Source: a bacterium
GTDB lineage: Bacteria > UBA8248
Reading direction: 5' to 3'
DNA length: 64,000 nt
Assembly: GCA_965202625.1 (NCBI GenBank)
Contig: CBDBBI010000010.1
Span: 224,001-288,000, forward strand
Position 1 is the first letter of the stretch, and each line of letters begins with the position of its first letter. Below, piece after piece: positions 7,358 to 63,036 of this stretch. Under the pieces are notes generated by a model, which was not told where the DNA came from, did not search any database, and saw only the letters and a list, made by a program, of their open reading frames with translations. The translations under genes and the position numbers were made by a program.

Positions 7358-7378
7358 CGCAAAACGAACCGCGCTTTG

Positions 7379-8083
7379 ATGAGGGGAGAGAACGTGCGCT
7401 TGCTGAACGGCCATGAAATCGACGTCTGTTTGTTCGACGCCTACGGCACCTTGTTTGACGTGTCCGCCGCCGCCGAGGAGAAGGAATCCGCTCTGGGCGA
7501 TCGGTGGCGGGTGCTCTCCTCGCTTTGGCGGACGAAGCAGATCGAATACACGTGGCTGAGGAGCCTGATGGGGTGTCACGCGGATTTCTGGCGGGTGACG
7601 GGCGACGCGCTGGATTTCGCCCTTGATACTCTGGGAATGGAGGAGCCGGAGCTTCGAGACGAACTCATGGCGCTTTACAAGCGATTGCGCGCGTATCCCG
7701 AGGTGAGAGGCGCACTCGGGAAGCTCCGGAGGAGCCGGATGCGGGCGGCGATTCTCTCCAACGGCTCTCCCGAAATGCTCGACAGCGCGGTGAGAAGCGC
7801 CGATATCGGGGAGTATCTGGAAGCGGTCCTCTCCGCCGAGGAGGTGGGGGTGTTCAAGACGCACCCCTCCGTCTATCAACTGGCGGTGGACAGGCTCGGC
7901 GTTCCCGCCGGCAGAATCTGCTTTTTCTCCTCCAACGCCTGGGACGTGGCGGGCGCGTCGCATTTCGGGTATCGCGTGGTCTGGGTCAATCGATTCGCAC
8001 AGAAAAAAGAGCGCGTCCCGCACGAGATCGACGCGGAAATCGGCTCGCTTGAGGAGCTGGAAGGCGTGCTGGCGTATGCGTGA
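7379..8083 (+). CDS. Haloacid dehalogenase type II (L-2-haloacid dehalogenase-like)
   Basis: FDAYGTLFDV, WRTKQIEYTW, ILSNG, FKTHPSVY and SSNAWDVAGA. Confidence 0.9.
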   Translation: MRGENVRLLNGHEIDVCLFDAYGTLFDVSAAAEEKESALGDRWRVLSSLWRTKQIEYTWLRSLMGCHADFWRVTGDALDFALDTLGMEEPELRDELMALYKRLRAYPEVRGALGKLRRSRMRAAILSNGSPEMLDSAVRSADIGEYLEAVLSAEEVGVFKTHPSVYQLAVDRLGVPAGRICFFSSNAWDVAGASHFGYRVVWVNRFAQKKERVPHEIDAEIGSLEELEGVLAYA

Positions 8084-8104: not shown

Positions 8105-8689
8105 TTACGAGACGTTCAGCGCACCTCTGAGGGTTTGAATTCTCCCCGCGTGATCGGAATGGCTGACGGGCGGAAGTTTTTCCCTGTTCGTGACGGGAAG
8201 CGCGATGAAGTGCGGTCCCGCCTCGGCGAGGAGCCGGGGGAGGGTTTTGCGAAACGCCCCGAGAGAATCCACCCGCTCCACCTTGCCCTTTCCCGTCGCG
8301 CCGCCGCCCTCAAACCCCGAGGCGCGCGCCAGCGCGACGAAATCTGCCCGGGGGGGGAGCCTTTGCCCGCCCACCATTTCGTAGCTCCTGTTCTCCAGCA
8401 GAAAGACGAGCAGGTTTTCGGGTCCATAGCGCGCCAGCGTCACGAGCGAGCCGAGACTCATCAGCATCCCCCCGTCCCCTTTCCAGACGATGACCTTTCT
8501 CTCGGGTCGCGCGAGGGCGAGGCCCAGGCCGAAGTCGGCGGCGTGCCCCATGCCGAACGCCAGAAAGTCGAAATCGAGGTCGCTTTGCGAGACCAGGGGC
8601 CACTGCAGGGTGGCGGTCATGGTCATCACCACGATCTCTGTCGTTCTGTGCTCCGCCACGGCCTGAAACAGCCCCATCCGCTCTATCAA
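8105..8689 (-). CDS. ThDP-binding decarboxylase beta subunit (ComE / sulfopyruvate or phosphonopyruvate decarboxylase-like)
   Basis: GMGH...GLGLALARPERKVIV and ThDP motif GDG...LEN.SYE. Confidence 0.8.
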   Translation of the reverse strand: MIERMGLFQAVAEHRTTEIVVMTMTATLQWPLVSQSDLDFDFLAFGMGHAADFGLGLALARPERKVIVWKGDGGMLMSLGSLVTLARYGPENLLVFLLENRSYEMVGGQRLPPRADFVALARASGFEGGGATGKGKVERVDSLGAFRKTLPRLLAEAGPHFIALPVTNREKLPPVSHSDHAGRIQTLRGALNVS

Positions 8690-8707
8690 GACGCTCCGCC
8701 TCTGTGG

Positions 8708-9217
8708 TCAGGGTTGGAATGCGTAGCCGGTGAGGACGGCCGCCGGATAGGAGGAGGCCGCCGCCGCTTCGTCCATCAGGTCGAGCGTGCCCAGGTCTTC
8801 GTCCGACATGAGGTGCCAGGTCGGTATCCCCCACGCCTTGAGAAGCGGCTCTGTGAAGGGGTAGGCCGAATCTATCGGCAGCTTGCCCGCCATCGCCCCG
8901 CCGTATCCCCGCCAGCCGACCACCATGCGCAAGGGTACCCTGGGCCCTGCACCGCAGCCTCTCAAGGCGTCTCCCGCCTCCATCAGCCCCGTGTTCTGAA
9001 TCACGAGCAGCGGTTTTTGCCCCCCCGTCCACAGCCCGGCGGCGATGGCGATCGACTCCCCCTCCCGGCAGGGGGTGATGAGGTCGATTTCCGGGGCACT
9101 CTCCAGACGTTCGTAGAGGAGCCTGCTCTCGCTGTCCGGAATCATGAGGACGTGCGTGAATCCGAGTTCGTGAAATTTCCGCACCGTGTGGGTCGCACTC
9201 GCACCTTTTGCGTCCAA
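8708..9217 (-). CDS. ThDP-dependent decarboxylase alpha subunit (ComD-like)
   Basis: IPDS, catalytic Glu in CREGESIAIAAGL, IQNTGL and VGWRG. Confidence 0.8.
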   Translation of the reverse strand: MDAKGASATHTVRKFHELGFTHVLMIPDSESRLLYERLESAPEIDLITPCREGESIAIAAGLWTGGQKPLLVIQNTGLMEAGDALRGCGAGPRVPLRMVVGWRGYGGAMAGKLPIDSAYPFTEPLLKAWGIPTWHLMSDEDLGTLDLMDEAAAASSYPAAVLTGYAFQP

Positions 9218-9399
9218 AGGGTTTTCCTCTCCGCCCCTTGATGAGAGTTCCAGGTTCTTTCATATTCAGGCAGCCATCTTCGGCCGCGCGCGTCGCCAAA
9301 GTCAAGGGTTTCCGGCGAGACGATGCGCGAAGCGAGAATGATAGGCGCGCGCGGCTGCGTTTTGGTTTTTCCCGTGCGGTGTGCGGAGAAGGAGCCACC

Positions 9400-10837: not shown

Positions 10838-12401
<1,564 letters not shown>

Positions 12402-12409
<8 letters not shown>

Positions 12410-13688
12410 TATCTGGCCGAGAATACCTTTAGATTCTGTTGTCCGCTTCCAAGAAGGTCCGGGCATCCTTGCGAAAGACTTTCATCCAGACGGCGTTCCG
12501 CTTGTTAGGCTTGCGGGGCTTGGCGGGTACGAAGTAACGCTCAACAAGTGTAACTATCTTGATCCGTCTTTCGTAGCGAAGAAGTGGGATCACTTCAGGC
12601 TTAAAAAGGGGGACATACTTATTTCAACGAGTGCATCATTTGGAAGACCTGCGGTTGTGGGTGCAGAAGCCGAAGGCGCAATATTTTACACGGGAATAAT
12701 CCGCTTTCGTTCTATGTCTAGTGAGCTAAACGAGGGCTATTTGAAAAGCTTCCTCGGGTCTCGCGCGTTTATGCTTCAGGCCGAAGCACAGGCGTCAGGA
12801 AGTGTAATTAGTCATTTTGGACCTTCGCATTTGCGCCGGATGGAAATCCCACTGCCGCCATTGAAAGAGCAGCAAAATATCGCGTACGTACATTCCACCC
12901 TCGACGACAAGATCGAACTGAACCGGTGGATGAACGAGACGCTGGAGGCGATGGCGCGGGCGATTTTCAAGGACTGGTTCGTGGATTTCGGCCCCACCCG
13001 CGCCAGGATGGAAGGCCGCGAACCCTGCCTCGCCCCCGAAATCTGGAACCTGTTCCCCGACAGGCTGGATGCGGAAGGCAAGCCGGAGGGGTGGGAGCAA
13101 GGAACCCTTGTGGATATTGCGGATTCCCCGAGGCGAGGCGTTAGCCCAGCCGACGTTGCCGAGGACACGCCCTACATCGGCCTAGAGCATATGCCGCGCC
13201 GTTCAATCGCACTCTCGGAGTGGGAAGGCGCGGGGAAAGTTACGAGCAACAAGTCGATCTTTAAAAAGGGGGAATTCCTGTTCGGGAAACTGCGGCCCTA
13301 CTTCCACAAGGTCGGATTTGCGCTATTGGACGGCATTTGTTCGACTGACATCGTTGTTGTGATCCCGCGAGCCCCGAACTGGGGAGCGTTTACTCTCGCC
13401 TGCCTATCTACGGATGAATTCGTGGATTACACGGATCAGACGTCGACCGGCACGAAGATGCCGCGCACGGGCTGGAATACAATGGGGCAATACGAGGTTT
13501 GCATTCCATCTGAGCAGATTGCCCATGCTTTTCAGAGCATCGCGCAGACGCTGTTTGACCGTGTCAGCACGAACATTCATGAATCCCGCACCCTCGCCCA
13601 AACCCGCGACTTTATTCTTCCGAAACTGATGTCCGGCGAAATCCGGCTCCGTGAAGCCGAGAAGATCGCAGGGGAGGCAGTTGCATGA
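12402..13688 (+). CDS. hsdS: Type I R-M specificity subunit
   Basis: Two TRDs separated by the conserved IPLPPLKEQ...LDDKIELNR...[12 protein letters not shown] region, ending in [14 protein letters not shown]. Overlaps the hsdM stop. Confidence 0.95.
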
Positions 13689-14482
13689 AGGTAGCGGCAG
13701 GAGAACCGGTGTACCATGAAGGCAGCGCCCCGTGTTCCGGGCTTGGCCTGAAGTGGTCGGGCGACGAGCTTGATGCTGCGATGAATGGCCGCGTGGCTGC
13801 CGTCCTGTTTGATGACGCAGGCAAGGCCGACATCGAAGGCATTCTGACCGGCCTTCCCGAGACCGACTTTGAGCAGGAAGGGCTTCGCCGTATTCTCTCC
13901 GCTCCCGATGATATGGAGGACTGGCGCGTCGGAGAGGCGATCGCCGAGGCCTATCTCACTGATCACCGCGATTGCTGTTTCCCGTGGCCTGCCGGACGAG
14001 ACGAGCGCAAGCGAGGCTCCAGTCTGCCTGGTGCGGATCTTGTCGGCTTCCATGCCGACGAGCAGGGCGATTGCCTGGCATTTGGTGAAGTCAAGACGTC
14101 CTCCGAAGCCAGGTATCCACCGGGGAGCATGTATGGCCGGACAGGGCTCAAGCAACAACTTGGGGACTTGCGAGACAGGGTTTCCATACGCGATGACCTC
14201 GTCTGGTATCTCTTCCATCGTGCCAAGGGGGCCGATTGGTTTGCGCGGTTCATGAAGGCGACAAAGCGCTATCTGGCCAACAAATCGGACGTGCGGCTTT
14301 ACGGGTTTCTTGTCCGTGATGTTCAACCGCAGAAAGATGACGTGCGAGTCCGTGTGGAAAAGCTCGGAAAGGACTGCCCGGAGGGAACGAAAGTTGAACT
14401 TCTTGCGCTGTATCTTCCGAAGGGCCGCATTAAAGGAATCGGCGCCGCCGCTGTGAAGACAAGGACAGGAGCGGGATCATGA
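13685..14482 (+). CDS. HamA-like (Hachiman/DUF1837-type) PD-(D/E)xK nuclease
   Basis: GEAIAEAYL...SLPGADLVGF...LAFGEVKTS gives the GE..GxD..GExK catalytic pattern. ATGA overlaps with both hsdS and the helicase. Confidence 0.65.
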   Translation: MKVAAGEPVYHEGSAPCSGLGLKWSGDELDAAMNGRVAAVLFDDAGKADIEGILTGLPETDFEQEGLRRILSAPDDMEDWRVGEAIAEAYLTDHRDCCFPWPAGRDERKRGSSLPGADLVGFHADEQGDCLAFGEVKTSSEARYPPGSMYGRTGLKQQLGDLRDRVSIRDDLVWYLFHRAKGADWFARFMKATKRYLANKSDVRLYGFLVRDVQPQKDDVRVRVEKLGKDCPEGTKVELLALYLPKGRIKGIGAAAVKTRTGAGS

Positions 14483-17400
14483 CTCTGTCCATGAAATCTC
14501 TTGACGATCTCAGAGAACATTGGGCTGTCAGTGCAATCGGCGCGGAGGATATCGCGCGGGCCGAAAGGCTCGTAAACGAAAATCTCGCCCGTCGAGCGGT
14601 TGGCCAGCAGATAGCCTTTTCGTTCTCGCCAGGTGCGAGTGACGACGCCTTTCTGGAGCGCGTTGCGCTGGCCTTTGAAATGGCGGCTATTGAGGGCCTG
14701 GACGAGCTGAGCCGTCCTTCCGGCGAGAACGCGGCATTGCGCGATCAGGCGACTGCCGCGTCATTCCGCGCTTTTGATATTCGCCGTTTGCTGCCGGTCC
14801 CGACCGAAACGCATGACCGGCTTTTCTTTGTCCTGCAACTTTCCGCCCTTGCCTATTGCGGGGATCGCTGGTCGGACCTTCGCCGCTGGTACAAGGAAAA
14901 CGCCGGGGCACTGGCGGCTCCGAGCGTTGCCGAAAGCCTGTGGGACCGCCGCCTTCTGTACCGTTTGTTCCATTGCTGGGTCCGGTTGTTCCGGAAGGAG
15001 GGCTGGGATGATCTTGACCGGATCAGTGAGATCATCGACGGACTGCGCGACGATCAAAAGATATATGAGAAAGAGCGACTTAAGAACGGTTCGCACGCGG
15101 CGAATCGGGCAATCGCCCTGCGGCTTGCGGCGCTTTATCACTGGGCGAAGAGCACCGAGCTTGTTGCGCAATACATGTTGCAGGGGCAGCCGGCAAACCC
15201 GTTTGGCTTGATTGACAAGCACTTCGACGGGGCCATCAAGGCAGCGACGGCCTCAGGCGACGCGCAGCACGAGATTATTCTGCGCTGGTTACATGCAGCC
15301 GCGCGGATCATGATCACGAACTCGCTTTGGTGGGCGACGCGTACCGTCAATTCACGCACAACGCGTTTTGTCCACTCCTTGACGCACCGCAAACACCAGG
15401 CGATGTTCGAGCTCCTGCCGCCTCAGCGAGCGGCCCTTCTTGAGCAGGGGCTGCTCGATCAGGCCAAGACGGCAATCGTGGTCGATATGCCGACCTCGGG
15501 AGGAAAAACCCTCCTCGCGCAATTCCGCATCCTTCAGGCATTGAATCAGTTCAGCGCCGATGGTGGCTGGGTCGCATATGTTGCGCCCACACGCGCCTTG
15601 TCCGCCCAGATCACCCGGCGGCTGCGAAAAGACTTCGAGCCGCTCGGCGTCCGGGTCGAGCAACTAACGGCCGCGGTCGAGGTGGACGCCTTTGAGGAGG
15701 AGCTGCTGGCGAACAAGGAGCAGCCATTCACGGCCACGGTCCGGGTGGACGTCTTTGAGGAGGAGCAGCCGGCGGACAACGATCCGCCATTCGACATTCT
15801 CGTGGCTACACCCGAGAAGCTGTCCCTCGTCATCCGCAACAAGAAGGTCGAGAACCGGCCGCTTGCCCTCGTTGTCATGGACGAAGCACACAATCTCGAA
15901 ACGAAAGACAGAGGGCTCCGCATCGAGTTGTTGCTCGCGACGGTGAAGAGGGATTGTCCGAAGGCGAACTTCCTTCTCCTCATGCCTTATGTAGAAGGAG
16001 CGGAATCCGTAGCGCGGTGGCTGGCACATGATATAAACGCCGGCCAGGCGATCAGCCTTGGAACGACGCCCTGGAAACCCAATGAACGAATTATCGGCCT
16101 TTATAGTGCCGTTGCGGATGACAGCCAGCGCGCTGGATGGCATCTCAAATTCGAGACTTTAACTGCTACTTCGAAAGCTATGCAGCTTCACGGCACTCAC
16201 CGCGTTGGCGGTGTGAAGCCCATCAATGTTCCCAAAAGCAAGGTGCTTATCAAAGGCCGGCAGGAAGGTTTCGGCCTTCAGACGGCGGCCATTGCGACCG
16301 TCATGTCCGCCCGTGGCACGAGCGTCGCCATAGCCAACCATATTCCCACCGTGTGGAACATGGCCGCCAAGGCGGCAGAGTGCTTGTCGGATTTCGATAC
16401 GATTCCGACCGACATCAAGCTCGTTCAGGATTTTCTGCGCACCGAGATCAGCCCCGACTTCCCGCTGATTGCAATGCTGGACAAGGGAGTCGGTGTCCAC
16501 CATGCCGGTCTTTCCGATGACGTGCGCGGCCTTATGGAGTGGCTTGCCGAAACCGGAAGCCTGCGGATGCTTTGTGCGACCACCACGATTGCGCAGGGGA
16601 TCAATTTTCCGGTTTCCTCCGTTTTCCTGCAAACGCACAAATATCGCTACGGGCAGGAAATGTCGCCGCGCGAGTTCTGGAACCTGGCCGGTCGCGCAGG
16701 CCGTATCGATCATGACAGCGTGGGTGTCATTGGCATTGCGGAAGGTTCGAGTCGAGATTCTCTCATCAAGTTCGTCAGCCGCAACACGGGTGCTCTCGTC
16801 TCGCGCCTTGTCTCGTTGCTGGACGATCTTGCCAAGCAAGGCGAATTGGCGAATCTGTCGGAAGTCCTTTGTCAGGAACAATGGGAGGATTTCCGCTGTT
16901 ACATTGCGCATCTTTGGGCGGAGAAAAAGAACCTCGACGCCGTTCTCTCTGAATCTGATCAGCTCCTTCGCCAGACGTTCGGCTATACGTCTCTGCGAAA
17001 CGACCCCGCGCAGCGGGAGAAGGCTGACGCATTGCTGCTTGCGGCCCACGCCTACGCGCGCGAACTTGCCAAGAAGCCTGGCGTCGCCGAACTTGCGGAC
17101 TCGACGGGCTTCTCACCGGAAGGCGTGGGTAAAGCGATGAGCGAACTTAACCAGCTTGAGACCAAACTCACGCCATCGGATTGGGCTCCGGAGAGTCTTT
17201 TCGGAAAGGGCGGCAAAATCGCCGATTTGTATGGCGTCATGTTGAAAGTGCCGCAACTCCAGAAGCAACTTGAGGAGATTGGCGGCCAGGGTTTTGATCG
17301 CACCCGGATTTCCGATATCACGCGCGACTGGGTGAATGGCAAGGGAATTGACGCCATAGCCAGGGAGTACTTCAGCCGGGAAACGGACGACGAAGGGAGA

Positions 17401-17814
17401 ACGGCTGCGATTACGGATGCCTGCCGCGCCATATATCGCGCGATTGTCAATAATGGAACCTGGGGTGTTTCCGCGCTGAGCCGCATTTCCGGTATCGACT
17501 TTGACAGTCTGCCGGAGGCCGAGCGTCGCAGGATCAATGCGCTTCCCGCGATGATTTATCACGGCGTCCGCACGGAAGATGCGGTTTTGATGCGTATGAA
17601 TGCCGCGCCACGCAGCGCGTCTGTAAACCTAGGGAATTTGTATCGCGAGACAATCGGCGAAGGCGATGGTCGCTATTCCGTCGGCCAAGCCCGCCAATTC
17701 CTGAAAGACCTGAGCGATCGCGACTGGCACCGCGCCCGCCCGGAAAGCGCCGCTCTCTCTGGCGACGGATACAAGCGCGTCTGGGAAGTGCTTTCCGGGG
17801 AGAGAAGCACATGA
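14479..17814 (+). CDS. Ski2-like SF2 DEAH helicase with long helical N-terminus (HamB/AbpB-like)
   Basis: [42 protein letters not shown] and NLAGRAGR. Confidence 0.85.
15667..15792 (+). repeat. In-frame 63 bp tandem duplication inside the helicase gene
   Basis: 15667-15729 versus 15730-15792 are 53/63 nt identical: [21 protein letters not shown] / [21 protein letters not shown]. Confidence 0.9.
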
Positions 17815-17848
17815 CGGCATTTGCCGAAAACGTCAAGGAGGCCGTGTA

Positions 17849-21007
<3,159 letters not shown>

Positions 21008-21434: not shown

Positions 21435-22190
21435 TCAAGCGCGGCAGATGGTGAGGAGGTGCACCGCGTTGGCCCCCGCTTTTTTGAGCTCCCGCGCACA
21501 CGCCGAGGCGGTCGAGCCGGTCGTGACCACGTCGTCGATCAAGATGCACGTGGCGGATGCGAGTTTTTCACGCACCCCTCCGGAGCGAACCCTGAATACC
21601 CCGCGCATGTTTCGCCGCCTCTCCCGCCCGGACAATCCCGTTTGCGAGCGGCCTGGCTTCGCGCGTTCCAGCAAGCGCGCGTGCGGCTTGCCCAGGTGCT
21701 CCGCCGTCTGGAGGGAGAGGAGCAGTGCCTGATCGAAGCCCCGGGTTCTCCAGCGCGCGCGGTCGATCGGCACGTGCGTGAGGATGACGTTCGGCGTTTC
21801 TTCACCGACGCCGAATTCGCTTGTCGCCAGATCGGCGAGATGGGGAGCGAGTGCGCGCGCCAGCTTCGTGACGCCCCCGAACTTGAGGAGATGCACCAAC
21901 TCTCGCAAAGAACCCTCAAAGGCGCCGATGGAGCGGACCTTGTCATAGTGAAGGTCGTCTTGTTGGCACGGGGCGCAGACGTGCGCGGGAAAATGGGACA
22001 GGGCGGCCTGGGAGTGAAAGGGTCTGCCGCATCTGGGGCACCAGGGCGGCTTGAAGCATTCGAAGGCGTCCGCGCAAGGGGTGCATATCGCATCGGTACC
22101 GCCGATTTCCATCAGATTCAGGCACAAGGGGCACTTTCTGGGGAGGAGAAAGTCCGTCGCCGCGCGAAGGAGAGAACGCAGGTGGCGCAT
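21435..22190 (-). CDS. comF: ComF family protein (double zinc ribbon plus PRTase domain)
   Basis: Four CxxC pairs, RGFDQA, SQTGL...RRRN and LIDDVVTTGST. Confidence 0.9.
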   Translation of the reverse strand: MRHLRSLLRAATDFLLPRKCPLCLNLMEIGGTDAICTPCADAFECFKPPWCPRCGRPFHSQAALSHFPAHVCAPCQQDDLHYDKVRSIGAFEGSLRELVHLLKFGGVTKLARALAPHLADLATSEFGVGEETPNVILTHVPIDRARWRTRGFDQALLLSLQTAEHLGKPHARLLERAKPGRSQTGLSGRERRRNMRGVFRVRSGGVREKLASATCILIDDVVTTGSTASACARELKKAGANAVHLLTICRA

Positions 22191-22258: not shown

Positions 22259-23404
22259 TCAGGATTTTCTTCTCAACTGCACCCTTTTGCTGCCCGCCCC
22301 CTCGCTTCTCGCCTCGCCCCGGCGGCGGTGGCGAATGAGTTCTGCGACGATGGCGACCCCGATCTCCCCCGGCGTATCGGCGCCAATGTCCAGGCCGATG
22401 GGTGCGTGGACGCGCTTGATGAGTTCTCCCCGATCGTGGCCCTTCTCTTCGAGGTGGCGATAGGTGAGCAGTACCTTGCTCTTTGAACCTATCATTCCGA
22501 TGTAGCGCGCGTTCGTCTGCATCGCCCATTCGAGGACGACCTCGTCGTTCGCGTGTCCCCGGGTGATGATGGCCATGTAGTCTGCCTCGTCCACCGGAAT
22601 TTTCTCGAAAATTTCGGGAAAATCCCCCACGTAGAACGCCTCCGCCATCGGAAAGCGCTCCGCGTTGGCGAACGATGGTCTGTCCTCTACGACCGCGACC
22701 CTGAAGCCGGCGAGATAGGCCGCCTGCGCGACGCAGAAAGACACGTGCCCGCCGCCGAAGACGTAGACGAGCGGCTGGCCGGATATGGGTTCGACGAAAA
22801 TTTCTGTGGCTTCTCCGGGCGCGGACCTCTTTCGCCCCGCGCGCGCCGCCTCCGTGTGGAAATGCAGGAGAGAGGGGCTGCCCTGGCGAATGATTTGCGT
22901 GCTCTCCGCCCAAATCTCTGCCGAATAGTGGGGAATTTCGCCCACGGCGCTGCCGTCGCGCCTGAAAAGCATTTTTCTGGCCTCCGGCGTCGGAATGTCG
23001 AGCGCGCCCGGCTGGACGATGGTCGCCAACGCCGCGCTGCCGCCCTGGTTTCTGATGGCGTTGATCGCATCGAGCAGTTCCGGATGAAACACCCGAAACG
23101 GCTCCACCAGTATCTCCACGACGCCGCCGCAGATGTGTCCGCTGTCCTCCGCCTCCTGCTGGGTGAGGTCGAAGGCGCACTTCTCAGGCTCGCCCGTCTC
23201 CAGGACGCTCATGGCGCTTTCCCAGACCTCCGCCTCCAGGCAGCCGCCCCCGACGGTACCCTCCGTGCTGCCGTCCTCGCGCACGAGCATTTTCGCATCC
23301 CCGCTCATGGGCGCCGATCCCTTGCGGTTCACCACGGTGGCGAGCGCGCCGCTCTGGCCTTCTTCCTTCAGCCTGGCCATTTCCCTGAAAACGTCCTTGC
23401 CCAT
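22259..23404 (-). CDS. xdhC: XdhC/CoxF family Moco-insertion chaperone
   Basis: ALATVV.RKGSAP, GTVGGGCLE, CGG, a second N-domain repeat, VFGGGHV, TRGH..D, YIGMIGS and HAPIGLDIGADTPGEI. Confidence 0.92.
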   Translation of the reverse strand: MGKDVFREMARLKEEGQSGALATVVNRKGSAPMSGDAKMLVREDGSTEGTVGGGCLEAEVWESAMSVLETGEPEKCAFDLTQQEAEDSGHICGGVVEILVEPFRVFHPELLDAINAIRNQGGSAALATIVQPGALDIPTPEARKMLFRRDGSAVGEIPHYSAEIWAESTQIIRQGSPSLLHFHTEAARAGRKRSAPGEATEIFVEPISGQPLVYVFGGGHVSFCVAQAAYLAGFRVAVVEDRPSFANAERFPMAEAFYVGDFPEIFEKIPVDEADYMAIITRGHANDEVVLEWAMQTNARYIGMIGSKSKVLLTYRHLEEKGHDRGELIKRVHAPIGLDIGADTPGEIGVAIVAELIRHRRRGEARSEGAGSKRVQLRRKS

Positions 23405-23434
23405 TCCCCGCTCCCTTGAGGCGCACCGCCCGTC

Positions 23435-24262
23435 TCAGGCGTCTGGTGCGATTCGCAAAAAGACTTTGCACGCGTTCTGCAAGCAAGACGTGAGGAGAAT
23501 ACCGTCCGCCGGACCGTTCGATCCTCCGGCCATCTCCCAGATAATATATGCCATTTTTTCGAGTTTTTCCACCGAGGGCTCCAGGTCGGCCTTGTTGATG
23601 ACGATCCACTTCCGCACACCAGCCCCCGCCTTGTGAAACAGACCCGCAGGGCTCGCGCATAATTTTCCGATCGCTTGCGCCGTTATCTCCTCGCCGGCCT
23701 GCACGCCGCACACTTTCGAGAACCGCTTCGCGCGAAAGACGCGCGCCTCGCTCAAGGGGGCGCCCAACGCATCCAGCCCTACGACGCCCAGAACGGCGTC
23801 CAGGCTTTCCGGCAGCACGGGCTCGTCCGGCCCAGGCGCCTTGATGGGCAGCCTTCTCGCCCCGTCCGCCTCGACGAGGGTGAGGCCATCGCATAATTGC
23901 AGGCGGGCGATTTCCGCAGGGGCGAAGCCGACGAGCTTCATGCGCCGCTCGCCCTGCCGGCCCGGGAGCGGCGCCTTTCCCTCCCTGCGGCGAGCGAACC
24001 ACGAGATTCCGCAGACGCGCATGTAAGGGCGGAGGCGCTTCGAGAGGGTGTCGACGTGGCCCAGGGCGAGGGGCGTCTCCTCCTCCGGAAGCGGCGCGAA
24101 AACCTTGGTGGTCGTCGTAAGAAGCGCGGGTTTTCCGTATTGGGCGTGAAACTCTTTGGCGATGGCCGTCAGCAGACTCGTTTTTCCGCCCGCCCCGACC
24201 GCCGCCAGGCTTTGGCCCGGCCGGACGTCGAGTGCCTGAACCGCACCGCCTCGCGCTACCAA
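23435..24262 (-). CDS. yqeC: Selenium-dependent molybdenum hydroxylase accessory protein YqeC
   Basis: VGAGGKTSL, LTTTTK, LVEADGARRLPIKAP...EPVLP and INKAD. Confidence 0.88.
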   Translation of the reverse strand: MVARGGAVQALDVRPGQSLAAVGAGGKTSLLTAIAKEFHAQYGKPALLTTTTKVFAPLPEEETPLALGHVDTLSKRLRPYMRVCGISWFARRREGKAPLPGRQGERRMKLVGFAPAEIARLQLCDGLTLVEADGARRLPIKAPGPDEPVLPESLDAVLGVVGLDALGAPLSEARVFRAKRFSKVCGVQAGEEITAQAIGKLCASPAGLFHKAGAGVRKWIVINKADLEPSVEKLEKMAYIIWEMAGGSNGPADGILLTSCLQNACKVFLRIAPDA

Positions 24263-26025
24263 GGGCGCCTCTCCGCACCGCCGAGCAGCTCGTGCCTGAG
24301 AATGCGCACGAGCTCCGCGGAAAGCTGGGAGAGATCCTCCACCACGATGTGGTTGGGGTAGATTTGCTCGACGAATGGGTCGACCACGCCAACGCCGATG
24401 ACGCGGACGCCCAGCTTGTGCATCCGGTTCACCGCGCCCACGAGGTGGGTCGCGTCCCCGTTGGGCTGGCCGTCCGAGGTGATGATGATGATTTTTTCCT
24501 CCTCGGGCCGCTGGATGAGCCTTCGGTAGGCGAACAGGAGATGTTCCTCGTCCCAGTTGTTGAAGCGCGGATAAATGTTGACGAGGCGATTTTTGACCTG
24601 CGAGAAAGCGTCATCGAATCCCTTGTAGATGCGGTGCTGCAGGGGGGAGTGTCGAATGTGCCGGAACTTGAACGCGGGGATGTGGCCCAGGGCGGCCGCC
24701 ATCGCGGCTTCTGAACTCTCGGTGGAATAGCCGATCACCTCAAAGGGCACGTCCAGGCGATTCAGAACTTCCGCGAAAAATATGGTCGCCTCTCTCGCTG
24801 CGACGTATTTTGATTCGCGATTCATGCTGCCGCTCTCATCCACGAGCAGCGTGAAGCAGACGTCGAGCTTCTCCGGTTCTTCCTTTCGGTGAAAAAGATG
24901 AAACTTCCCCAAGCGCTGCTTCCAGAGTTTCGGGACGTTCAGCTTGCCGGAGCGATGGGCGCCGCTGAAGCGGGTATAGGTTCTCTCGTGAATGATCTGG
25001 GTGAGCTTCCATACCAGCACCTTGATGTGGCTGCCCGCGTTGTCCATGATCGCCGCGTATTCCTCGGCCTTGCCCTCGGGCGGCAATATGATGGTGCGCT
25101 CATCGGGATGCCGCGCCGTCGGATGCACCTCCTTCCCGTGTCCCTCGCGCTCGAACCACGGAGCGGCCCAGCGCCCCATGGCGGCGAGCTCCTCCGGCGT
25201 CAGCTCGACCTGTTCGCCTTCCTCCCCGTCGATTTCCTCGAGCGCCTCCGCGTGAAGCGCCTCGAGCGTCTCGTCCTCTTCTCCCTCCATGCTTTGGCTC
25301 TCGATTTTCTCGAGAATCTCGTCGGGAATCTCGGAGAGTTGTTCATAATTGCTCATCTCGCTTCGCTGCGCTTCGGTGAAATATCGTTGAATGGCGTCAT
25401 AGACCTCATGCGCGCAGTCGAAGGCGGCCTTCGGGCTGCGGCCGGCACACCCCCGAACCACCAGGGGGGCGATTCGTTGAAGGATTTGCGCGACGACGGG
25501 GTCGAGCCAGGCGGAGGGCAAGTCTCCGGGCCTTGAGGAGGCGACGCCGGGCGTTTGTCCGACGCCGGCGAGATAGATTCCCCACTGAATCTGTAGAAAC
25601 AGGGGGAGCTCTCCGCGCGCGTGGGTGCCCTCGGCGGACTCAATCGCCGGACGAACGAAGGCGCGAAAGTTTTTCTTCGTGCCGGGCAGCGATTCGGCGA
25701 GGCGGTTTTCGCACCTCGCGTCCTCTATCACGCGCCAGAGGAGAAAAAGCCCCGGTCTTTCACGGTTGGCGCGCGCGGCGCGTCCCGCCCAGCAAAGCGT
25801 ACCCTGGAGTCTGTGGGCCGCCTCGATGAGCGTCATGCCCTTTTGGTATCTCAGGACGCACTCGTCTTCTAACTCGCCGCCCAGGCGCGCCAGGGTTTGT
25901 TCCGGGTCTTCGAGGTGGATGGCGTCGTTCCCGGCCTTCGTCTGGGAGCCGAAGAGCAGGGCGAGGTCGTAATCGTGCGTCGTGACCTGCGCAAGTGCCT
26001 CCAGACGGGCGCGTCGGTGCTCCAT
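24256..26025 (-). CDS. vWA (MIDAS) domain protein, CobT/NorD/CbbO-like partner of the AAA+ ATPase
   Basis: N-terminal WRVIEDARCE, acidic linker, SGKLN, MIDAS LVDESGSM and IITSDGQP. Confidence 0.85.
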   Translation of the reverse strand: MEHRRARLEALAQVTTHDYDLALLFGSQTKAGNDAIHLEDPEQTLARLGGELEDECVLRYQKGMTLIEAAHRLQGTLCWAGRAARANRERPGLFLLWRVIEDARCENRLAESLPGTKKNFRAFVRPAIESAEGTHARGELPLFLQIQWGIYLAGVGQTPGVASSRPGDLPSAWLDPVVAQILQRIAPLVVRGCAGRSPKAAFDCAHEVYDAIQRYFTEAQRSEMSNYEQLSEIPDEILEKIESQSMEGEEDETLEALHAEALEEIDGEEGEQVELTPEELAAMGRWAAPWFEREGHGKEVHPTARHPDERTIILPPEGKAEEYAAIMDNAGSHIKVLVWKLTQIIHERTYTRFSGAHRSGKLNVPKLWKQRLGKFHLFHRKEEPEKLDVCFTLLVDESGSMNRESKYVAAREATIFFAEVLNRLDVPFEVIGYSTESSEAAMAAALGHIPAFKFRHIRHSPLQHRIYKGFDDAFSQVKNRLVNIYPRFNNWDEEHLLFAYRRLIQRPEEEKIIIITSDGQPNGDATHLVGAVNRMHKLGVRVIGVGVVDPFVEQIYPNHIVVEDLSQLSAELVRILRHELLGGAERRPW

Positions 26026-26039
26026 GCCCCATCCTCCGG

Positions 26040-26924
26040 CTAGAAGTGGTTGTCTACGATGTCCTCAAGCACTTTGGCGTCGAAAGAGTTCACCTTGCTG
26101 AAGATGGTGGAGACGGCGGCCTCCATGGGGCTGAACCGCGCCGCCATTCGCGCCCAGTCTATCAGGCGGCGGGTGCTGAACGTGCAAAATACCTTTTCGT
26201 TTCTCATGGCCTCGCGCACGTCGTGGCCCACGCGCACCATGCGCTGGACGAGCTCCTCGTCGTGATTTCCGCTTTGCCGCATGATGACCTCGACTTCGGC
26301 CTCAAAGGGCAGGTAGTCCATTCGCACGCTGACCGGAAAGCGATCCAGAAGCGCCTCGTTCAGTGGCTTCGTGCCGCCGTATCTGCGGTCCTCGTGCGGG
26401 TTCATGCTGGCGAAGAGCCTGAAGCCCGGATGCGGCCTGACGATGCGGCCGTCATACTCCGACAGGACGATCATGCGATCGTCGTCAAGAAGGCTGTGCA
26501 GACAAAAGGCGATTTCGGGCAGACATGCGTTGATCTCGTCGATGAGCAGCCAGTCGCCCGATTCCATCGCGTCCACGAGAATGCCGTTCACCCAGTAGGT
26601 GCCCTGTTCGTTGATCATGAGCTTGCCGACGAACTCATCGACCGTGGTCATGCCGTTGAGGTTCACGCGCCTGAAGCCGTTGTTCGTCATGTGCGCGAGG
26701 TGCCGCACCGAGAGCGTTTTGCCGACTCCGGTCTCTCCCACGAGGAGGACGGGCAGGTTCTGGCTCACCGCCCACGCGATGCGCTCCAGCCCATCGCCGC
26801 CGGCCAGATAAAACTGCCCTGGCGGGACGAAGGAATTCCCGTTCGATTCATTGACGGGGATGACGCTGCGCCCGATGCGGTAGGCGCCGTTCTCCACCGT
26901 TTCGGTCAAAATTTCGGGGCTCAA
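26040..26924 (-). CDS. MoxR-clade AAA+ ATPase, CbbQ/NirQ/NorQ type
   Basis: Walker A GETGVGKT, Walker B LLIDEIN, FASMNP, ALLDRF and STRRL. Confidence 0.9.
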   Translation of the reverse strand: MSPEILTETVENGAYRIGRSVIPVNESNGNSFVPPGQFYLAGGDGLERIAWAVSQNLPVLLVGETGVGKTLSVRHLAHMTNNGFRRVNLNGMTTVDEFVGKLMINEQGTYWVNGILVDAMESGDWLLIDEINACLPEIAFCLHSLLDDDRMIVLSEYDGRIVRPHPGFRLFASMNPHEDRRYGGTKPLNEALLDRFPVSVRMDYLPFEAEVEVIMRQSGNHDEELVQRMVRVGHDVREAMRNEKVFCTFSTRRLIDWARMAARFSPMEAAVSTIFSKVNSFDAKVLEDIVDNHF

Positions 26925-27778
26925 TTCGCATACTCCAAGGCTGAATGCGCACCGAACAGGAACGCCATGACCGCCTCAAGCGCGCCGCCGCCGACCGCGC
27001 GCGATTTGTCGGATATCGTCGTGCAGTGGGAAGGATCGGCCCTCGGGTCCACGTCGCCCACCTTGAAGCCGGCGCACACCTCGATGCCGTCTCTGATGAT
27101 GCCGCGCAAAACGCCGTCAACGCGCGCGGTCACCTCCGCCCCATCCACCCGCGCAACGACCTGGCCCGCCCGCACCACGTCTCCCATTTTGGCGATGGAC
27201 GTGAACGCGCCGGCCTGGGGGGCGCGCAGCAGGCGCTCGGTGGTGTAGCCCGCGATGGCGCCCGGCACGCCCGTGTCGGGTTTCGCCGCCCCGTCAAGGA
27301 TCACCCGGCCCAGGTCGTGCCCCCGGGCCGTCTCGATGACGGCGTGGCAATCCACGCCCGCGGTGAAACCGGGCCCCAGCCCGACGACGACGTCGGCGTC
27401 GGCCATGCGCGTGCCGAGGTTTCGCTTCGCCAGAATCGCGTCGATCAGGACGACGGGCCGGAGGCGGGGGATCGACTCGGCGCGCGGGTCCGCCATCACC
27501 GGAATGGAGCCCGCCTCAAGCGACGCGCGCGCGTTCGCTATTTTCTCCTCAATGGTCTCTCCGTCCGCTCTGGCGGACCGCACGCCCTCCACCTCCCATG
27601 CGCCGACGTAGAGGCACTCGGCGAAGGAGACGGCGCGCCTCACCATGGTGGGGTTCTCGATTTCCGTTATCATGACCGGAAAGCCCGAGCGGTGCAGACG
27701 GTGGGCCACGCCGGTGGCGAGATCGCCGCCGCCCTTGACGATCACGAGCGTCTCGCAAATCGGCCTTTGCCCTCTCAT
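26921..27778 (-). CDS. yqeB: Selenium-dependent molybdenum hydroxylase system protein YqeB (EF2563 family)
   Basis: VKGGGDLATGVAHRL, VRRAVSF, DAILAKRNLGT, GLGPGFTAGVDCHAVIET.RGH.LG and KVGDVDPR...SDKSRAVGGG. Confidence 0.92.
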   Translation of the reverse strand: MRGQRPICETLVIVKGGGDLATGVAHRLHRSGFPVMITEIENPTMVRRAVSFAECLYVGAWEVEGVRSARADGETIEEKIANARASLEAGSIPVMADPRAESIPRLRPVVLIDAILAKRNLGTRMADADVVVGLGPGFTAGVDCHAVIETARGHDLGRVILDGAAKPDTGVPGAIAGYTTERLLRAPQAGAFTSIAKMGDVVRAGQVVARVDGAEVTARVDGVLRGIIRDGIEVCAGFKVGDVDPRADPSHCTTISDKSRAVGGGALEAVMAFLFGAHSALEYAN

Positions 27779-28176
27779 GGCGTCTCGTCTTCCACGAAGG
27801 CGACGGCGTCGATCTCGATGAGCCATTCGGGTTTCGCCAGCCCGCTCACGATCAAAAGCGTGCTCGCCGGATAGGGCGCGCTGAAATAATTTTGCCGCAC
27901 TTCCGTGCTTCCCGGAAAATTCGCCCGATCCGTGAGGTAGACGGTGAGGCGGATGACGTCCTCCATTCCGGCGCCCGCCGCCTCGAGTGCCGCCTTGATG
28001 TTCTCATATACCTGCCGGGCCTGTGCCTTGACGTCATCCCCCCCGACGGTGCGGCCCTCCACGTCGGTCGCCACCTGGCCCGCCAGCAGGATGAGATGCC
28101 CGTTCGATACCTTCCAGCCCGTGGAATACGCGGCTACGGGCCTGACCTTCTCCGTGTCAATCTGTCGTTTTCCCAT
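27775..28176 (-). CDS. RidA/YjgF/UK114 family protein
   Basis: AYS, LAGQV, YFSAPYPASTLLIVSGLAKPEWLIEIDAVA. The C-terminal Arg is replaced by Ser (PAS), so it is not canonical RidA. Confidence 0.85.
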   Translation of the reverse strand: MGKRQIDTEKVRPVAAYSTGWKVSNGHLILLAGQVATDVEGRTVGGDDVKAQARQVYENIKAALEAAGAGMEDVIRLTVYLTDRANFPGSTEVRQNYFSAPYPASTLLIVSGLAKPEWLIEIDAVAFVEDETP

Positions 28177-28336: not shown

Positions 28337-29503
28337 TCACCCATCCAGCAAATTCCGGGCGATGACCATGCGTTGAATCTGGTTGGTTCCCTCGATGATT
28401 TGCAGTTGCTTGGCGTCGCGCATGAAACGCTCCAGCGGGTAGTCCTTCATATAGCCCGCCTCGCCGAGCACCTGAATCCCGTTCACGGCGGCTCGCATGG
28501 CGACGTCGGTGGCGTAGCATTTCGCGGCGCACATGAAGTGCGCTCTCTCTTTTTGGTAAGCGCCGTTATCCACCATGGCGGCGGCGCGGTAAACGAGCAG
28601 ACGCGCCGCTTCGATTTCCATGAACGCATCGGCGAGAATGAACTGGACGGCCTGGAGTCGGCTGATCGGCTCTCCGAAAGCCTCGCGCTCTTTCGCATAT
28701 TGGGACGCGCAGTCCAGACACCCTTGCGCCAGGCCCACGGCCCTGGCACCGATGGCGGGCCGGGCCTGGTTGAAGCCGAGCATGGCGGTCTTGAACCCCT
28801 CCGCGCGTTCGCCAATCATGTTTTCCAGAGGCACGCGGGCGTTCTCCAGAAATATCTCGCAGGTGGGAATTCCCCGCATCCCCATCTTTCTCTCCCGTCG
28901 GCCCACCCGAAACTCCCCCTTGGGGACGATAAAGAGAGAGATGCCCCTCGCCCCCTTATCAGGTTCGGTCTTCGCCGCCACGACGATGAAATCGGCGACG
29001 CTCGCACCGGTGCAGTAGCACTTCTGGCCGTTGATGCGCCACGAATCTCCATCCCGCGTCGCCCTCGTCAATATGCGCGCGGCGTCGGAACCCGCATGCG
29101 GCTCGGTGAGGGAGAAGGCGGGCCGCATCTCGCCGCGCGCGACGCCGGCCAGATAGCGGTTTTTCTGCGCCTCGGTTCCGCCGATGGCGATGGGGCGCGT
29201 GGCGAGCAGGTGGACGGAGAGGAAGAGGGGGGAGTTCGAGCAGAAGCGCGCCATCTCCTCAATGGCGACGCACGTCTCCAGAATTCCGAGGCCTGCCCCG
29301 CCATACGCCTCGGGAACGTAGAGGCCGAGCAGTGCGCGGGATTTCAGAATCTGAAAAATATCTTCGGGATATTCGTCGTTCTCGTCAATTTCACCCGCGC
29401 GGGGGGCGATGTGGCGGCGGCTGAGTTCGCGCACCGACTCCCCCAGCTTCCGCTGGGCTTCGGTGAGAGCGAACGCGCCCGCGGAATCCGTTTCTTCCCC
29501 CAC
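28337..29503 (-). CDS. Acyl-CoA dehydrogenase, copy 2
   Basis: LTEPHAGSDA, NGQKCYCT, KMGMRG, REAFG and catalytic Glu in QIIEGTNQIQR. Confidence 0.93.
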   Translation of the reverse strand: MGEETDSAGAFALTEAQRKLGESVRELSRRHIAPRAGEIDENDEYPEDIFQILKSRALLGLYVPEAYGGAGLGILETCVAIEEMARFCSNSPLFLSVHLLATRPIAIGGTEAQKNRYLAGVARGEMRPAFSLTEPHAGSDAARILTRATRDGDSWRINGQKCYCTGASVADFIVVAAKTEPDKGARGISLFIVPKGEFRVGRRERKMGMRGIPTCEIFLENARVPLENMIGERAEGFKTAMLGFNQARPAIGARAVGLAQGCLDCASQYAKEREAFGEPISRLQAVQFILADAFMEIEAARLLVYRAAAMVDNGAYQKERAHFMCAAKCYATDVAMRAAVNGIQVLGEAGYMKDYPLERFMRDAKQLQIIEGTNQIQRMVIARNLLDG

Positions 29504-29518: not shown

Positions 29519-30691
29519 CTAGAGGTCGAGCAGGTTGCGAGCGATGATCATCCGTTGAATCTGGCTCGTCCCCTCGACGATCTGGATTTGCTTGGCGTCG
29601 CGCATGAAACGCTCCAGCGGGTGGTCCTTCATATAGCCCGCTCCGCCCAGGACCTGAATGCTGTCTATCGCGCACTTCATCGCCATGTCGGCCGCATAGG
29701 TTTTCGCCGTTGAGAAATATCGGGCGTTTTCCTTGCCGATTTGTCCCGCGTCCACGAGAGAGGCCGCGCGATAGACGAGCAGCCGCGAGGCCTCGATGTC
29801 CATGAACATGTCGGCGAGCATGAACTGAACGGCCTGGTGCCGGGCGATCGGTTTTCCGAAGGCTTCACGCTCTTTGGCGTAGTTGGCAGCGTAGTCGAGG
29901 CACCCCTGGGCGAGGCCCACCGCGCGCGCACCGATGGCGGGCCGCATCTGGTTGAACCCGAGCATCGCGGACTTGAACCCCTGGTTCAGCGCGCCGATTT
30001 GATTCTCCAGCGGGACGGCCACGTTGTCGAAGCGGATCATGCAGGTCGAGACGCCCCGCATCCCCATCTTGCGCTCGTGCTTGTCGATGCTGAAGCCCGG
30101 CGCGTCCGTGGGGACGACGTAGTAGGTGATGCCCCGCGTGCCCGCGTTGGGGTCGGTCTTGGCGGCGACGGTGATGAAGTCCGCTTTGTCGGGCCCCGTG
30201 CAGTAGCATTTCACGCCGTTGATGACCCATTCGCCGCCCTCCTTGACGGCGCGCGTGCGGATGTTTCCGGCGTCGGAGCCCGCGTGGGGTTCCGTAAGAG
30301 CGTAGGCACCGCGCAGCTCTCCTTTCGCGAGGCCCGACATGTAATGGTTTTTCTGCTCCTGCGTGCCGCTCAGGTCGATGACGCGGCTCGACAGCATGTT
30401 GAGCACGATGAAAAGGGGAGAGTTCGAGCAGAAGCGCGCGATTTCCTCAATCGCGACGCAACCGCCTAAAAAGCCCATTCCGCCGCCGCCGTATTCCTCG
30501 GGAAAGAATATGCCGAGGAGACCGTGGTCCTTTTGCATCTGGTAGATGTCTTCGGGGTATTCTTCGCTCTCGTCAATTTCGGCGGCGCGCGGGGCGACGT
30601 GACGCTCGGCGAGTTCGCGGACCGTCCGGCGGAGCATCTTTTGCGTATCGTCCAGGTCGAATGGAAGCGTGGATTCCGTTTGCAGGCTCAT
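29519..30691 (-). CDS. Acyl-CoA dehydrogenase, copy 1
   Basis: Same motifs, with QIVEGTSQIQR. Likely ATG at 30691. Confidence 0.93.
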   Translation of the reverse strand: MSLQTESTLPFDLDDTQKMLRRTVRELAERHVAPRAAEIDESEEYPEDIYQMQKDHGLLGIFFPEEYGGGGMGFLGGCVAIEEIARFCSNSPLFIVLNMLSSRVIDLSGTQEQKNHYMSGLAKGELRGAYALTEPHAGSDAGNIRTRAVKEGGEWVINGVKCYCTGPDKADFITVAAKTDPNAGTRGITYYVVPTDAPGFSIDKHERKMGMRGVSTCMIRFDNVAVPLENQIGALNQGFKSAMLGFNQMRPAIGARAVGLAQGCLDYAANYAKEREAFGKPIARHQAVQFMLADMFMDIEASRLLVYRAASLVDAGQIGKENARYFSTAKTYAADMAMKCAIDSIQVLGGAGYMKDHPLERFMRDAKQIQIVEGTSQIQRMIIARNLLDL

Positions 30692-30869
30692 CTCGCGGCT
30701 CCAGAGGTTTCGTTCACATTTGGAGTGCATTCTCGTTGCTTTTCCATCCATCATCTATTTCGCGGCGATTGCGTGTCAACGCCCCCGGATGAATAATGTC
30801 CTCCCCCCTCGGCTGTCGGTCCAAGCGAGCGGGCGCTTTCCGGCCCCGCTCCTGGAGGAATTATCGAGA

Positions 30870-46347: not shown

Positions 46348-46353
46348 GCCGCC

Positions 46354-57746: not shown

Positions 57747-57845
57747 TATGCGTGGTCCCGCCTTAGCCCCAAAAAGAATGGGTAGAGAAAGAAAAACTTG
57801 AAACGGTGATTCGCCGATAATCGCCTCATATTTATCGTAGGGATG

Positions 57846-59288: not shown

Positions 59289-59484
59289 AAGCGCCTGACG
59301 CGCCTAACTTTTGATATGCTAGCATTGTGTATTTCCAGGAGCAATCAATTTGACCGGGATTGGCTAAATTTGATATAGCGTATTCGCTTGATATTGGAGA
59401 ATTCAGCAAATCTGAGGTTTTCAACTAGAATCACGAGGTTTTGGCATTTACGCTATTTTCCTTCGCAGAGAGATTTTTCTAGCC

Positions 59485-61287: not shown

Positions 61288-61294
61288 TAAAAAC

Positions 61295-62023: not shown

Positions 62024-62145
62024 TCAAGTTTGTTGCGTCCCCGCTCACTTGCCGTCGTATGGTCTCCACAAAGCGTGGGGGACCAATCGTGGTAGATACT
62101 ATTAAGGCCCCAAGCAATAGCGCAAAAGATGAATGGTCCCTCATC

Positions 62146-63033: not shown

Positions 63034-63036
63034 CTT

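Follow-up and report, generated by a model that had tools for sequence, protein, structure and literature searches.

An AAA+ ATPase/von Willebrand factor A gene pair encoded between yqeB and yqeC, and its possible place in molybdenum hydroxylase maturation

The window examined here is a 64,000-nucleotide stretch of DNA from a UBA8248 bacterium (contig CBDBBI010000010.1, positions 224,001 to 288,000), in which six co-oriented open reading frames (ORFs) run on the minus strand from 28176 to 22259 and encode, in order, a RidA-like protein, YqeB, an AAA_5/CbbQ_C ATPase, a CobT_C-type von Willebrand factor A (vWA) protein, YqeC and XdhC (Table 1). We think, with slightly better than even confidence, that the last five of these genes form a maturation module for at least one xanthine-oxidase-family molybdenum hydroxylase encoded elsewhere in the genome. 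The ATPase/vWA pair is probably a helper, not described before, that opens molybdenum hydroxylases for the completion of their cofactor. The five genes form a tight operon that is conserved in relatives, and in another phylum, the Chloroflexota, the homologous pair lies downstream of genes for a hydroxylase of this family; it is gene context of this kind that supports a remodelling role.

The genes are closely packed. yqeB shares 4 nucleotides (nt; TTGA) with the ATPase gene, 14 nt separate the ATPase and vWA genes, the vWA gene overlaps yqeC by 7 nt, and a 30-nt gap precedes xdhC, junctions that lock the ATPase/vWA pair between yqeB and yqeC as a preliminary description of this DNA had proposed. 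ridA and yqeB meet in an ATGA at 27778-27775, provided that yqeB starts at 27778 rather than at the ATG of its longest ORF at 27826; because the tblastn matches of relatives to YqeB mostly start around residues 16-19 of the long ORF, it is likely that the ATG at 27778, overlapping the ridA stop codon, is the start used. With that start, the identities, shared orientation and junctions given for all six genes in the preliminary description agree with the ORF ends and with Pfam and NCBIfam. The same gene order and overlapping starts are found again in relatives, and the arrangement is therefore not a matter of chance. A promoter and terminator scan, which returned 8 terminator-like sites overall against 10.9 expected, placed no minus-strand terminator-like site inside the run; a sigma-70-like match (9 of 12; 23571-23543, minus strand) within the last part of yqeC, some 140 nt ahead of where xdhC starts, is a match to the consensus only and could be an internal promoter.

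Table 1. Positions of the six-gene run and its immediate neighbours in the window, with the family matches that identify them.
Feature	Position	Strand	Evidence
RidA/YjgF-like (Rid family) gene, first of the run	27775..28176	-	Pfam Ribonuc_L-PSP 96 bits
yqeB, stand-alone TIGR03309 domain	26921..27778 (longest ORF to 27826)	-	TIGR03309 349.5 bits against a cut-off of 220
AAA+ ATPase gene, AAA_5/CbbQ_C type, TTG start	26040..26924	-	AAA_5 99 bits, CbbQ_C 41 bits
vWA adaptor gene, 589 aa	24256..26025	-	CobT_C 68 bits, VWA 27 bits
yqeC, P-loop protein, TTG start	23435..24262	-	PF19842 114 bits; TIGR03172 153.8 bits against a cut-off of 73.05
xdhC-family molybdenum cofactor chaperone gene	22259..23404	-	XdhC_CoxI 94 bits, XdhC_C 128 bits, both over cut-off
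Acyl-CoA dehydrogenase genes (two), upstream neighbours	28337-29503, 29519-30754	-	Pfam Acyl-CoA_dh domains
ComF-family gene, 68 nt downstream of xdhC	21435..22190	-	Pfam DZR_2, Pribosyltran; TIGR00201 91, under cut-off

The ATPase matches AAA_5 (99.2 bits against a cut-off of 22) and, over residues 210-285, CbbQ_C (41 bits against 20.6), and its Walker A (GETGVGKT, 63-70) and Walker B (D129-E130) motifs are invariant in 10 sequences. On these features it is predicted to be a MoxR-like ATPase of the CbbQ/NorQ/CobS group; among solved single-domain chains CobS is nearest (98.9 bits), followed by NorQ (82.9) and CbbQ (76.9), and AAA_3, which we take to be the domain of MoxR proper and of CoxD-type ATPases, scores only 36.5 bits. 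CbbQ_C was not listed at E<=1e-8 for those ATPases scanned from groups 2 and 3 of the relatives described below.

In the vWA protein, residues D396, S398, S400, T435 and D518 are invariant across 21 aligned sequences and fit the DxSxS...T...D motif of a metal-ion-dependent adhesion site (MIDAS). In the structural model of this putative adaptor (mean predicted local distance difference test score, pLDDT, 74.7), a helical N-domain predicted with confidence (about 40-230) is followed by an acidic stretch of low confidence (243-295) and by the vWA domain (389-581); fold matches are confined to the vWA/MIDAS domains of Midasin and NorD. Among solved chains CobT is nearest, at 102 bits over the C-terminal part only; VWA_CoxE reaches 19.8, under its cut-off of 26.4, and an Atlas feature search linked the N-domain to a CobT (PF06213) cluster at 0.93, a lead only. 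A co-fold, run without controls, of the whole vWA protein with YqeB scored 0.00 against a mark of 0.32 and carries no weight for or against binding.

YqeB has no Pfam match and is recognized by TIGR03309, which also scores 366-378 bits on the YqeB proteins of relatives, with 371-378 for the two scanned from group 2 (L035 and L036). Its alignment shows a GGGDLATG motif, and H251, C252, D257 and K258 are invariant. The fold matches of its model (pLDDT 87) are weak and partial, with template modelling scores of 0.2-0.3, and hint, as a lead only, that the Rossmann-like part may resemble TcdA/E1-like proteins and the beta-hybrid part biotinyl/lipoyl-type domains. The translation of yqeC contains a P-loop (GAGGKTS) and an NKAD motif. 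For XdhC the score against the equivalog NF045664 (306.7) falls under the cut-off of 350, and we have therefore left its subtype unassigned. The RidA-like protein, with 83.8 bits to TIGR00004 (under the cut-off of 106.25), is the product of an accessory neighbour outside the core block.

Relatives of the pair

Relatives were collected from species-representative genomes, and the best 80 of 123 confirmed relatives were surveyed. Their loci were annotated by tblastn with the window proteins and with the hydroxylase subunits of two of the loci (L041 and L033), and Pfam or NCBIfam was run on the ORFs of eleven loci; counts for each gene are taken over the loci with enough flank. Sixty-four of the 80 loci are the family proper and fall into three groups of 34, 4 and 26. 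The remaining 16 (L064, which is archaeal, and L066-L080, from Firmicutes) belong to another family, matching in the vWA domain only at 25-30% identity, and were set aside; no YqeB, XdhC or hydroxylase match was found at these 16.

The 34 loci of group 1, labelled Nitrospinota, Tectomicrobia or 'bacterium', encode vWA proteins 52-84% identical to that of the window and keep the order yqeB-ATPase-vWA-yqeC-xdhC. The ATPase gene is adjacent to the vWA gene in 29/29 loci and yqeB lies directly upstream in 29/29; yqeC is adjacent in 30 of 32 and xdhC comes next in 28 of 30; L037 and L042, which account for the misses, do have both genes, with a truncated vWA match that upset the distance rule. The block persists from a guanine-plus-cytosine (G+C) content of 0.34 (L023) to one of 0.69 (L001), and its flanks vary. 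ridA is upstream in 20 of 28 loci, and acyl-CoA dehydrogenase genes occur in 23 of the 25 loci with at least 5 kb upstream; in L023-L025 a single such gene ends 20-70 nt ahead of the yqeB match, and L027 lacks an acyl-CoA dehydrogenase gene and has one for a chaperonin upstream. A ComF-family gene follows xdhC in most group-1 loci, L023 and L025 excepted.

In L001 a gene for a product of about 360 residues lies between the acyl-CoA dehydrogenase genes and ridA (6580-7671, plus strand), and the same place is occupied in 16 relatives in all. It has no Pfam or NCBIfam match and is missing from the window, where 160 nt separate the flanking genes.

Group 2 comprises four loci (vWA proteins 41-48% identical) with yqeB-ATPase-vWA in 4/4 and yqeB again directly upstream; neither yqeC nor xdhC is present at these loci. 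The linkage of close homologues to yqeB, by which the preliminary description proposed that its reading should be judged, is thus found throughout the loci counted in groups 1 (29/29) and 2 (4/4). At L033, genes for flavin adenine dinucleotide (FAD), molybdenum and 2Fe-2S subunits lie 3.4 kb downstream. As a separate observation, an ornithine cyclodeaminase/mu-crystallin-family gene takes the place of yqeC and xdhC after the vWA gene in L035 (10599-11696) and L033 (9463-10146), and in L036 a 114-residue ORF of the ornithine cyclodeaminase family follows the vWA gene (11913-12257); group 2 also has a tandem rhodanese gene nearby, beside biotin synthesis genes.

The 26 loci of group 3 are all from Chloroflexota, and their full-length matches are 64-75% identical in the ATPase and 33-46% in the vWA protein. 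Here the pair lies downstream of, and on the same strand as, FAD, 2Fe-2S, MoCoBD_1 and MoCoBD_2 genes in 17/17 loci with at least 5 kb upstream, and MoCoBD_2 is upstream in 18/18 with at least 2.1 kb; 17 nt separate the MoCoBD_2 and ATPase genes in L041, and two genes lie between them in L054. Of 18 loci counted, 10 have xdhC downstream. The large subunit of the hydroxylase is split, and no NCBIfam equivalog cut-off is reached; with 184 bits to TIGR02416 against a cut-off of 991, the enzyme is no CO dehydrogenase equivalog. A xanthine-oxidase-family target, proposed from the window sequence in the preliminary description, has thereby gained independent support.

The group-3 genes (in the range L038-L063; for example L041, 297-18882) sit within a long co-oriented cluster that also encodes KduI/IolB, xylose-isomerase-like triosephosphate isomerase (TIM) barrel, 3-hydroxyisobutyrate-dehydrogenase-like, aldehyde dehydrogenase, 2-hydroxyacid dehydrogenase and transketolase-like proteins. 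This content suggests a sugar-acid or cyclitol-type pathway that uses the split-subunit molybdenum hydroxylase.

What the three groups have in common is the xanthine-oxidase-family hydroxylases, whether as structural or as maturation genes, and because all groups share such genes we tie the pair to molybdenum hydroxylases. The family as a whole is not selenium-specific, the yqeB link being a property of one subclade; the linkage to selenium marker genes noted in the preliminary description therefore holds for groups 1 and 2, through yqeB, and fails for the family as a whole.

The family is small and, to judge by its sequences, discrete. A word-indexed search gave few close relatives of the adaptor, with 53 clusters at E<=1e-5, and among 1.84 billion representatives about nine score 450-888 bits and are followed by full-length CobT-related proteins at about 180-260 bits; 13 representatives have sub-threshold NCBIfam matches to CobT only (54-120 bits against a cut-off of 759). 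In a collection of plasmids, 741 records matched the vWA protein by tblastn, none covering at least 80% of the query, and these matches are to the vWA domain only at about 30% identity. A quick IQ-TREE phylogeny, built from a quick search and rooted at the midpoint, was computed from 35 chosen rows (7 of the 34 group-1, 3 of the 4 group-2 and 7 of the 26 group-3 sequences, 7 representatives and 11 CobT-related proteins). It separates the family from the 11 CobT-related proteins by a branch of 1.41 with a support of 100 in the Shimodaira-Hasegawa-like approximate likelihood ratio test (SH-aLRT), unites groups 1 and 2 in one clade (SH-aLRT 99) and places group 3 with four representatives in another (SH-aLRT 84).

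Proposed role and alternatives

Pairs of a MoxR-like ATPase and a vWA partner are reported to drive target remodelling and metal insertion, NorQ/NorD being an example (PMC13036017). CoxD is reported to be required for the MgATP-dependent sulfuration of molybdenum in folded CO dehydrogenase (PMC4240915), and the XdhC family is described as delivering the molybdenum cofactor (PMC2997495). CoxD, CoxE and CoxF of Oligotropha carboxidovorans resemble the block in that an XdhC-like protein is encoded together with an AAA+ ATPase and a vWA protein and that the client, CO dehydrogenase, is described as a folded enzyme of the xanthine oxidase family (PMC4240915, PMC2997495). The preliminary description had drawn this comparison, which is good as an analogy but does not extend to homology at the level of subfamilies, since the ATPase here favours AAA_5 over AAA_3 and the vWA protein is of CobT_C type with VWA_CoxE below its cut-off. 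The window also has no cox structural genes (coxLMS), and the partners of the pair are YqeB and YqeC, not copper-handling steps. The pair looks like a recruitment of an AAA+/vWA machine separate from that of CoxD/CoxE.

The likeness to NorQ/NorD lies in a MoxR-like, AAA_5-type ATPase encoded beside a vWA partner, in the NorQ score of the ATPase, in the place of the NorD vWA domain among the best adaptor fold matches and, as reported, in the opening of a metalloenzyme for cofactor insertion (PMC13036017). There are, however, no nor genes here, searches with the adaptor gave no NorD match for its N-terminal helical domain and acidic linker, and the clients differ. With CbbQ/CbbO the pair shares the CbbQ_C domain, similarity to CbbQ itself and a MIDAS-bearing adaptor and, as reported, the concept of restoring activity to an enzyme with a blocked or incomplete active site; no Rubisco genes are present here, and the adaptor is shorter than CbbO, which has about 750-800 residues. 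By analogy the pair would act like these machines and like CobS/CobT (discussed below), yet it belongs to none of them.

To our knowledge the components of the selenium trait named so far are only YqeB, YqeC and SelD, and we know of no established activity for any of the three. YqeB and YqeC of the window pass their NCBIfam equivalog cut-offs and are encoded beside XdhC, as in loci reported earlier (PMC2276186, PMC2432076). They differ from those loci in that YqeB stands alone and XdhC is separate, fusions to XdhC-like domains being described as frequent elsewhere (PMC2276186), and in that selD, mocA and a hydroxylase are not near the block. An ATPase/vWA component of the trait is not named in the main texts of PMC11448449, PMC5322559, PMC2276186, PMC2432076 and PMC2997495 by a search of terms, and PMC13653126 contains no AAA, CoxD, MoxR or von Willebrand term. 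The gene tables for E. coli, E. faecalis and C. difficile in PMC2276186 hold no gene of such a pair, and the model organisms of the trait thus appear to lack the pair, which is known only from uncultured lineages. In the open literature, supplements aside, our searches found no paper that links YqeB or selenium-dependent hydroxylases to an AAA+/vWA pair, in keeping with the preliminary description, whose author knew of none described for this system; in two papers that contain both YqeB and AAA, AAA is part of a strain name or CoxD appears in a separate context, and among the literature matches listed XdhC stands beside MoxR, CbbQ, NorQ, CobS or vWA in CoxD papers only.

We infer the following course of events, together with selenium use in this genome and the kind of client. 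XdhC would hold the molybdenum cofactor and pass it on, and YqeB, with its Rossmann-like domain and invariant His-Cys, and the P-loop protein YqeC would supply a labile selenium ligand derived from selenophosphate. The AAA_5 ATPase, presumably a hexamer, would act through the vWA/MIDAS adaptor, which would dock on a hydroxylase that is folded but incomplete or inactivated. Hydrolysis of ATP would then loosen the enzyme so that its buried molybdenum site could receive the cofactor or a terminal selenium (or sulfur) ligand, or could regain it after loss.

As to selenium, deletion of yqeB in C. difficile is reported to phenocopy selD mutants (PMC11448449), TIGR03309 members are described, on 2008 data, as known only from selD-positive species (PMC2276186), and the genome that gave L019, whose vWA protein is 66% identical, is reported to have 54 selenoprotein genes, placing it among the most selenoprotein-rich bacteria (PMC13326102). 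The restriction of TIGR03309 and the selenoprotein list of the L019 genome favour selenium use in the lineage indirectly; the window itself offers no evidence of it.

Several observations weigh against the proposed maturation module. No hydroxylase subunit gene lies in the 64-kb window, and none is present near the group-1 pairs (0/25 loci, searched to 10 kb). As the preliminary description had stated, the target enzyme, selD and mocA lie outside the window: among its 56 ORFs searched with Pfam (those of at least about 130 residues) there is no xanthine-oxidase-family subunit and no SelD-type or MobA/MocA-type domain, and tblastn with the L041 and L033 hydroxylase subunits finds xdhC as its sole match. 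Among the best 120 of 7242 protein matches to the L033 large subunit, none sits on a contig as long as that of the window (2,917,376 bases), though so short a listing leaves room for such an enzyme in the genome. selD is likewise missing from the flanks of the annotated relatives, and deletion of yqeC in C. difficile is reported to have no phenotype (PMC11448449). Because yqeB and yqeC are found within 10 kb in 0/26 Chloroflexota loci, even at E<=1e-3, the pair needs neither of them in cis. The three groups, moreover, amount to about three lineages rather than 64 independent cases, and since unrelated housekeeping neighbours (comF, the 3-deoxy-D-arabino-heptulosonate 7-phosphate (DAHP) synthase gene and the acyl-CoA dehydrogenase genes) are conserved within group 1 as well, synteny in that group alone is weak evidence. 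The weight of the gene-order evidence lies in the comparison across groups, in the overlapping reading frames and in the retention of the block at loci that differ widely in base composition.

A narrower form of the proposed module is that the pair carries out an energy-dependent step so far missing from the assembly of the labile selenium ligand, the adaptor gripping the folded enzyme, the ATPase opening the active-site funnel, and YqeB (through His-Cys) and YqeC placing or replacing selenium at the molybdenum; we regard this as possible, if rather doubtful. Unlikely to a slightly greater degree, in our judgement, is that the pair serves hydroxylases in a step independent of selenium (insertion with XdhC, provision of the terminal sulfido ligand, or repair), so that a shared client alone would explain its operon with yqeB and yqeC. 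The group-3 loci, where hydroxylase genes and XdhC accompany the pair and neither yqeB nor yqeC is nearby, agree with such a step, as does the reported action of CoxD in sulfuration (PMC4240915), and, with 64-75% identity between the ATPases of different groups, the motor probably has a single function throughout. On the other hand, yqeB adjoins the ATPase gene in 33/33 loci of groups 1 and 2, the genes overlapping in the window and in many relatives; the yqeB-linked loci form one clade in the quick tree; and the Chloroflexota genomes may hold yqeB, yqeC and selD elsewhere.

It is distinctly unlikely that the client is no molybdenum hydroxylase at all and that the pair remodels YqeB, YqeC or XdhC or, for example, acyl-CoA dehydrogenases. 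While hydroxylase genes are near the pair in none of the 25 group-1 loci, and in 23 of 25 loci acyl-CoA dehydrogenase genes lie upstream with the same orientation, close to yqeB in L023-L025, these dehydrogenase genes are missing from L027 and from groups 2 and 3, and the sole theme common to the three groups is that of xanthine-oxidase-family genes or maturation genes. Less probable again is a gene order without functional coupling, in which a single insertion placed the pair between yqeB and yqeC and its inheritance since then has been passive: comF and DAHP synthase genes are indeed conserved as well as the block is within group 1, but the spacing, with overlaps of 4 and 7 nt, fits translational coupling, the block is retained under changing flanks over the whole range of G+C content, and the tie to hydroxylase structural genes in the Chloroflexota is independent. 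That the pair is the CobS/CobT cobaltochelatase motor of aerobic cobalamin synthesis is scarcely credible in spite of the nearest solved chains, a shared layout of N-domain, acidic linker and CobT_C vWA domain and one homologue labelled 'cobaltochelatase CobT-related protein', for the equivalog scores are far under their cut-offs (TIGR01650, 83.2 against 558.55; TIGR01651, 55.8 against 759.05), which tells against the bona fide CobS/CobT identity that the preliminary description named as a refuting outcome, no CobN-type domain or other cobalamin gene turned up in the 56 ORFs scanned from the window or at any annotated locus, and a long branch parts the family from its CobT-related representatives.

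Other features of the window

The acyl-CoA dehydrogenase genes upstream of the run are conserved neighbours whose place in the module is unproven, and the ComF-family gene downstream is a conserved neighbour probably unrelated to it. No tRNA, including a selenocysteine tRNA, and no Rfam family, including the molybdenum cofactor riboswitch, was found in the window. A read-through scan for selenocysteine genes gave 18 candidates, of which the best, at 8108-9259 on the minus strand, was rejected as a selenoprotein: it consists of TPP_enzyme_N and TPP_enzyme_C halves in one frame, with a TGA at 8710 between them. Because two ORFs occupy this place in L019, the segment is most simply read as two adjacent subunit genes of a small thiamine pyrophosphate (TPP)-dependent decarboxylase; of the two longest ORFs listed over it, neither has a Pfam match.

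A type I restriction-modification operon occupies 10838-21007 on the plus strand, with HsdM at 10838-12409, HsdS at 12402-13688 and HsdR at 17849-21007. Embedded between hsdS and hsdR is the two-gene PADLOC candidate defence system PDC-M23, whose component A (13685-14482) scores 328 bits and component B (14479-17814), a HamB-like helicase, 1423 bits. This restriction/defence island is flanked by comF and pdxA; in the relatives L019 and L026 a helix-turn-helix (HTH) gene alone stands at that site. Part of the island is of lower G+C content (0.57-0.59 against 0.62-0.64). A type II restriction-modification pair at 45526-47007 on the plus strand, consisting of an N6_N4_Mtase gene (45526-46347) and a gene for an Eco47II-type endonuclease (46354-47007), is placed between the genes for the small and large chains of carbamoyl-phosphate synthase. 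From 54001 to 64000 the G+C content is 0.50-0.52, compared with about 0.62 (0.57-0.65) in the first 34 kb, and the genes there look like housekeeping genes (LepA, a signal peptidase, KsgA and a DegP-like protein).

Significance

AAA+/vWA pairs that mature enzymes are already known, and what is new here is a family of them with a new, inferred client. With xanthine-oxidase-family hydroxylases as that client, the CbbQ/NorQ/CobS-type AAA+/vWA machines would gain a fifth client class, and the xanthine oxidase family would have recruited such machines at least twice, once as CoxD/CoxE and once as the family described here. A motor and adaptor whose genes are spaced for translational coupling with yqeB and yqeC give the trait a concrete and testable component, framed as the opening of a folded enzyme, and the Chloroflexota loci, with four hydroxylase genes, the ATPase, the adaptor and XdhC, offer a compact full set for reconstitution. 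If the pair does provide the energy-dependent step of selenium ligand assembly, it would be a selenium 'insertase/reactivase' that parallels CoxD for sulfur, and the exchange of the terminal chalcogen in xanthine-oxidase-family enzymes would generally need mechanical opening.

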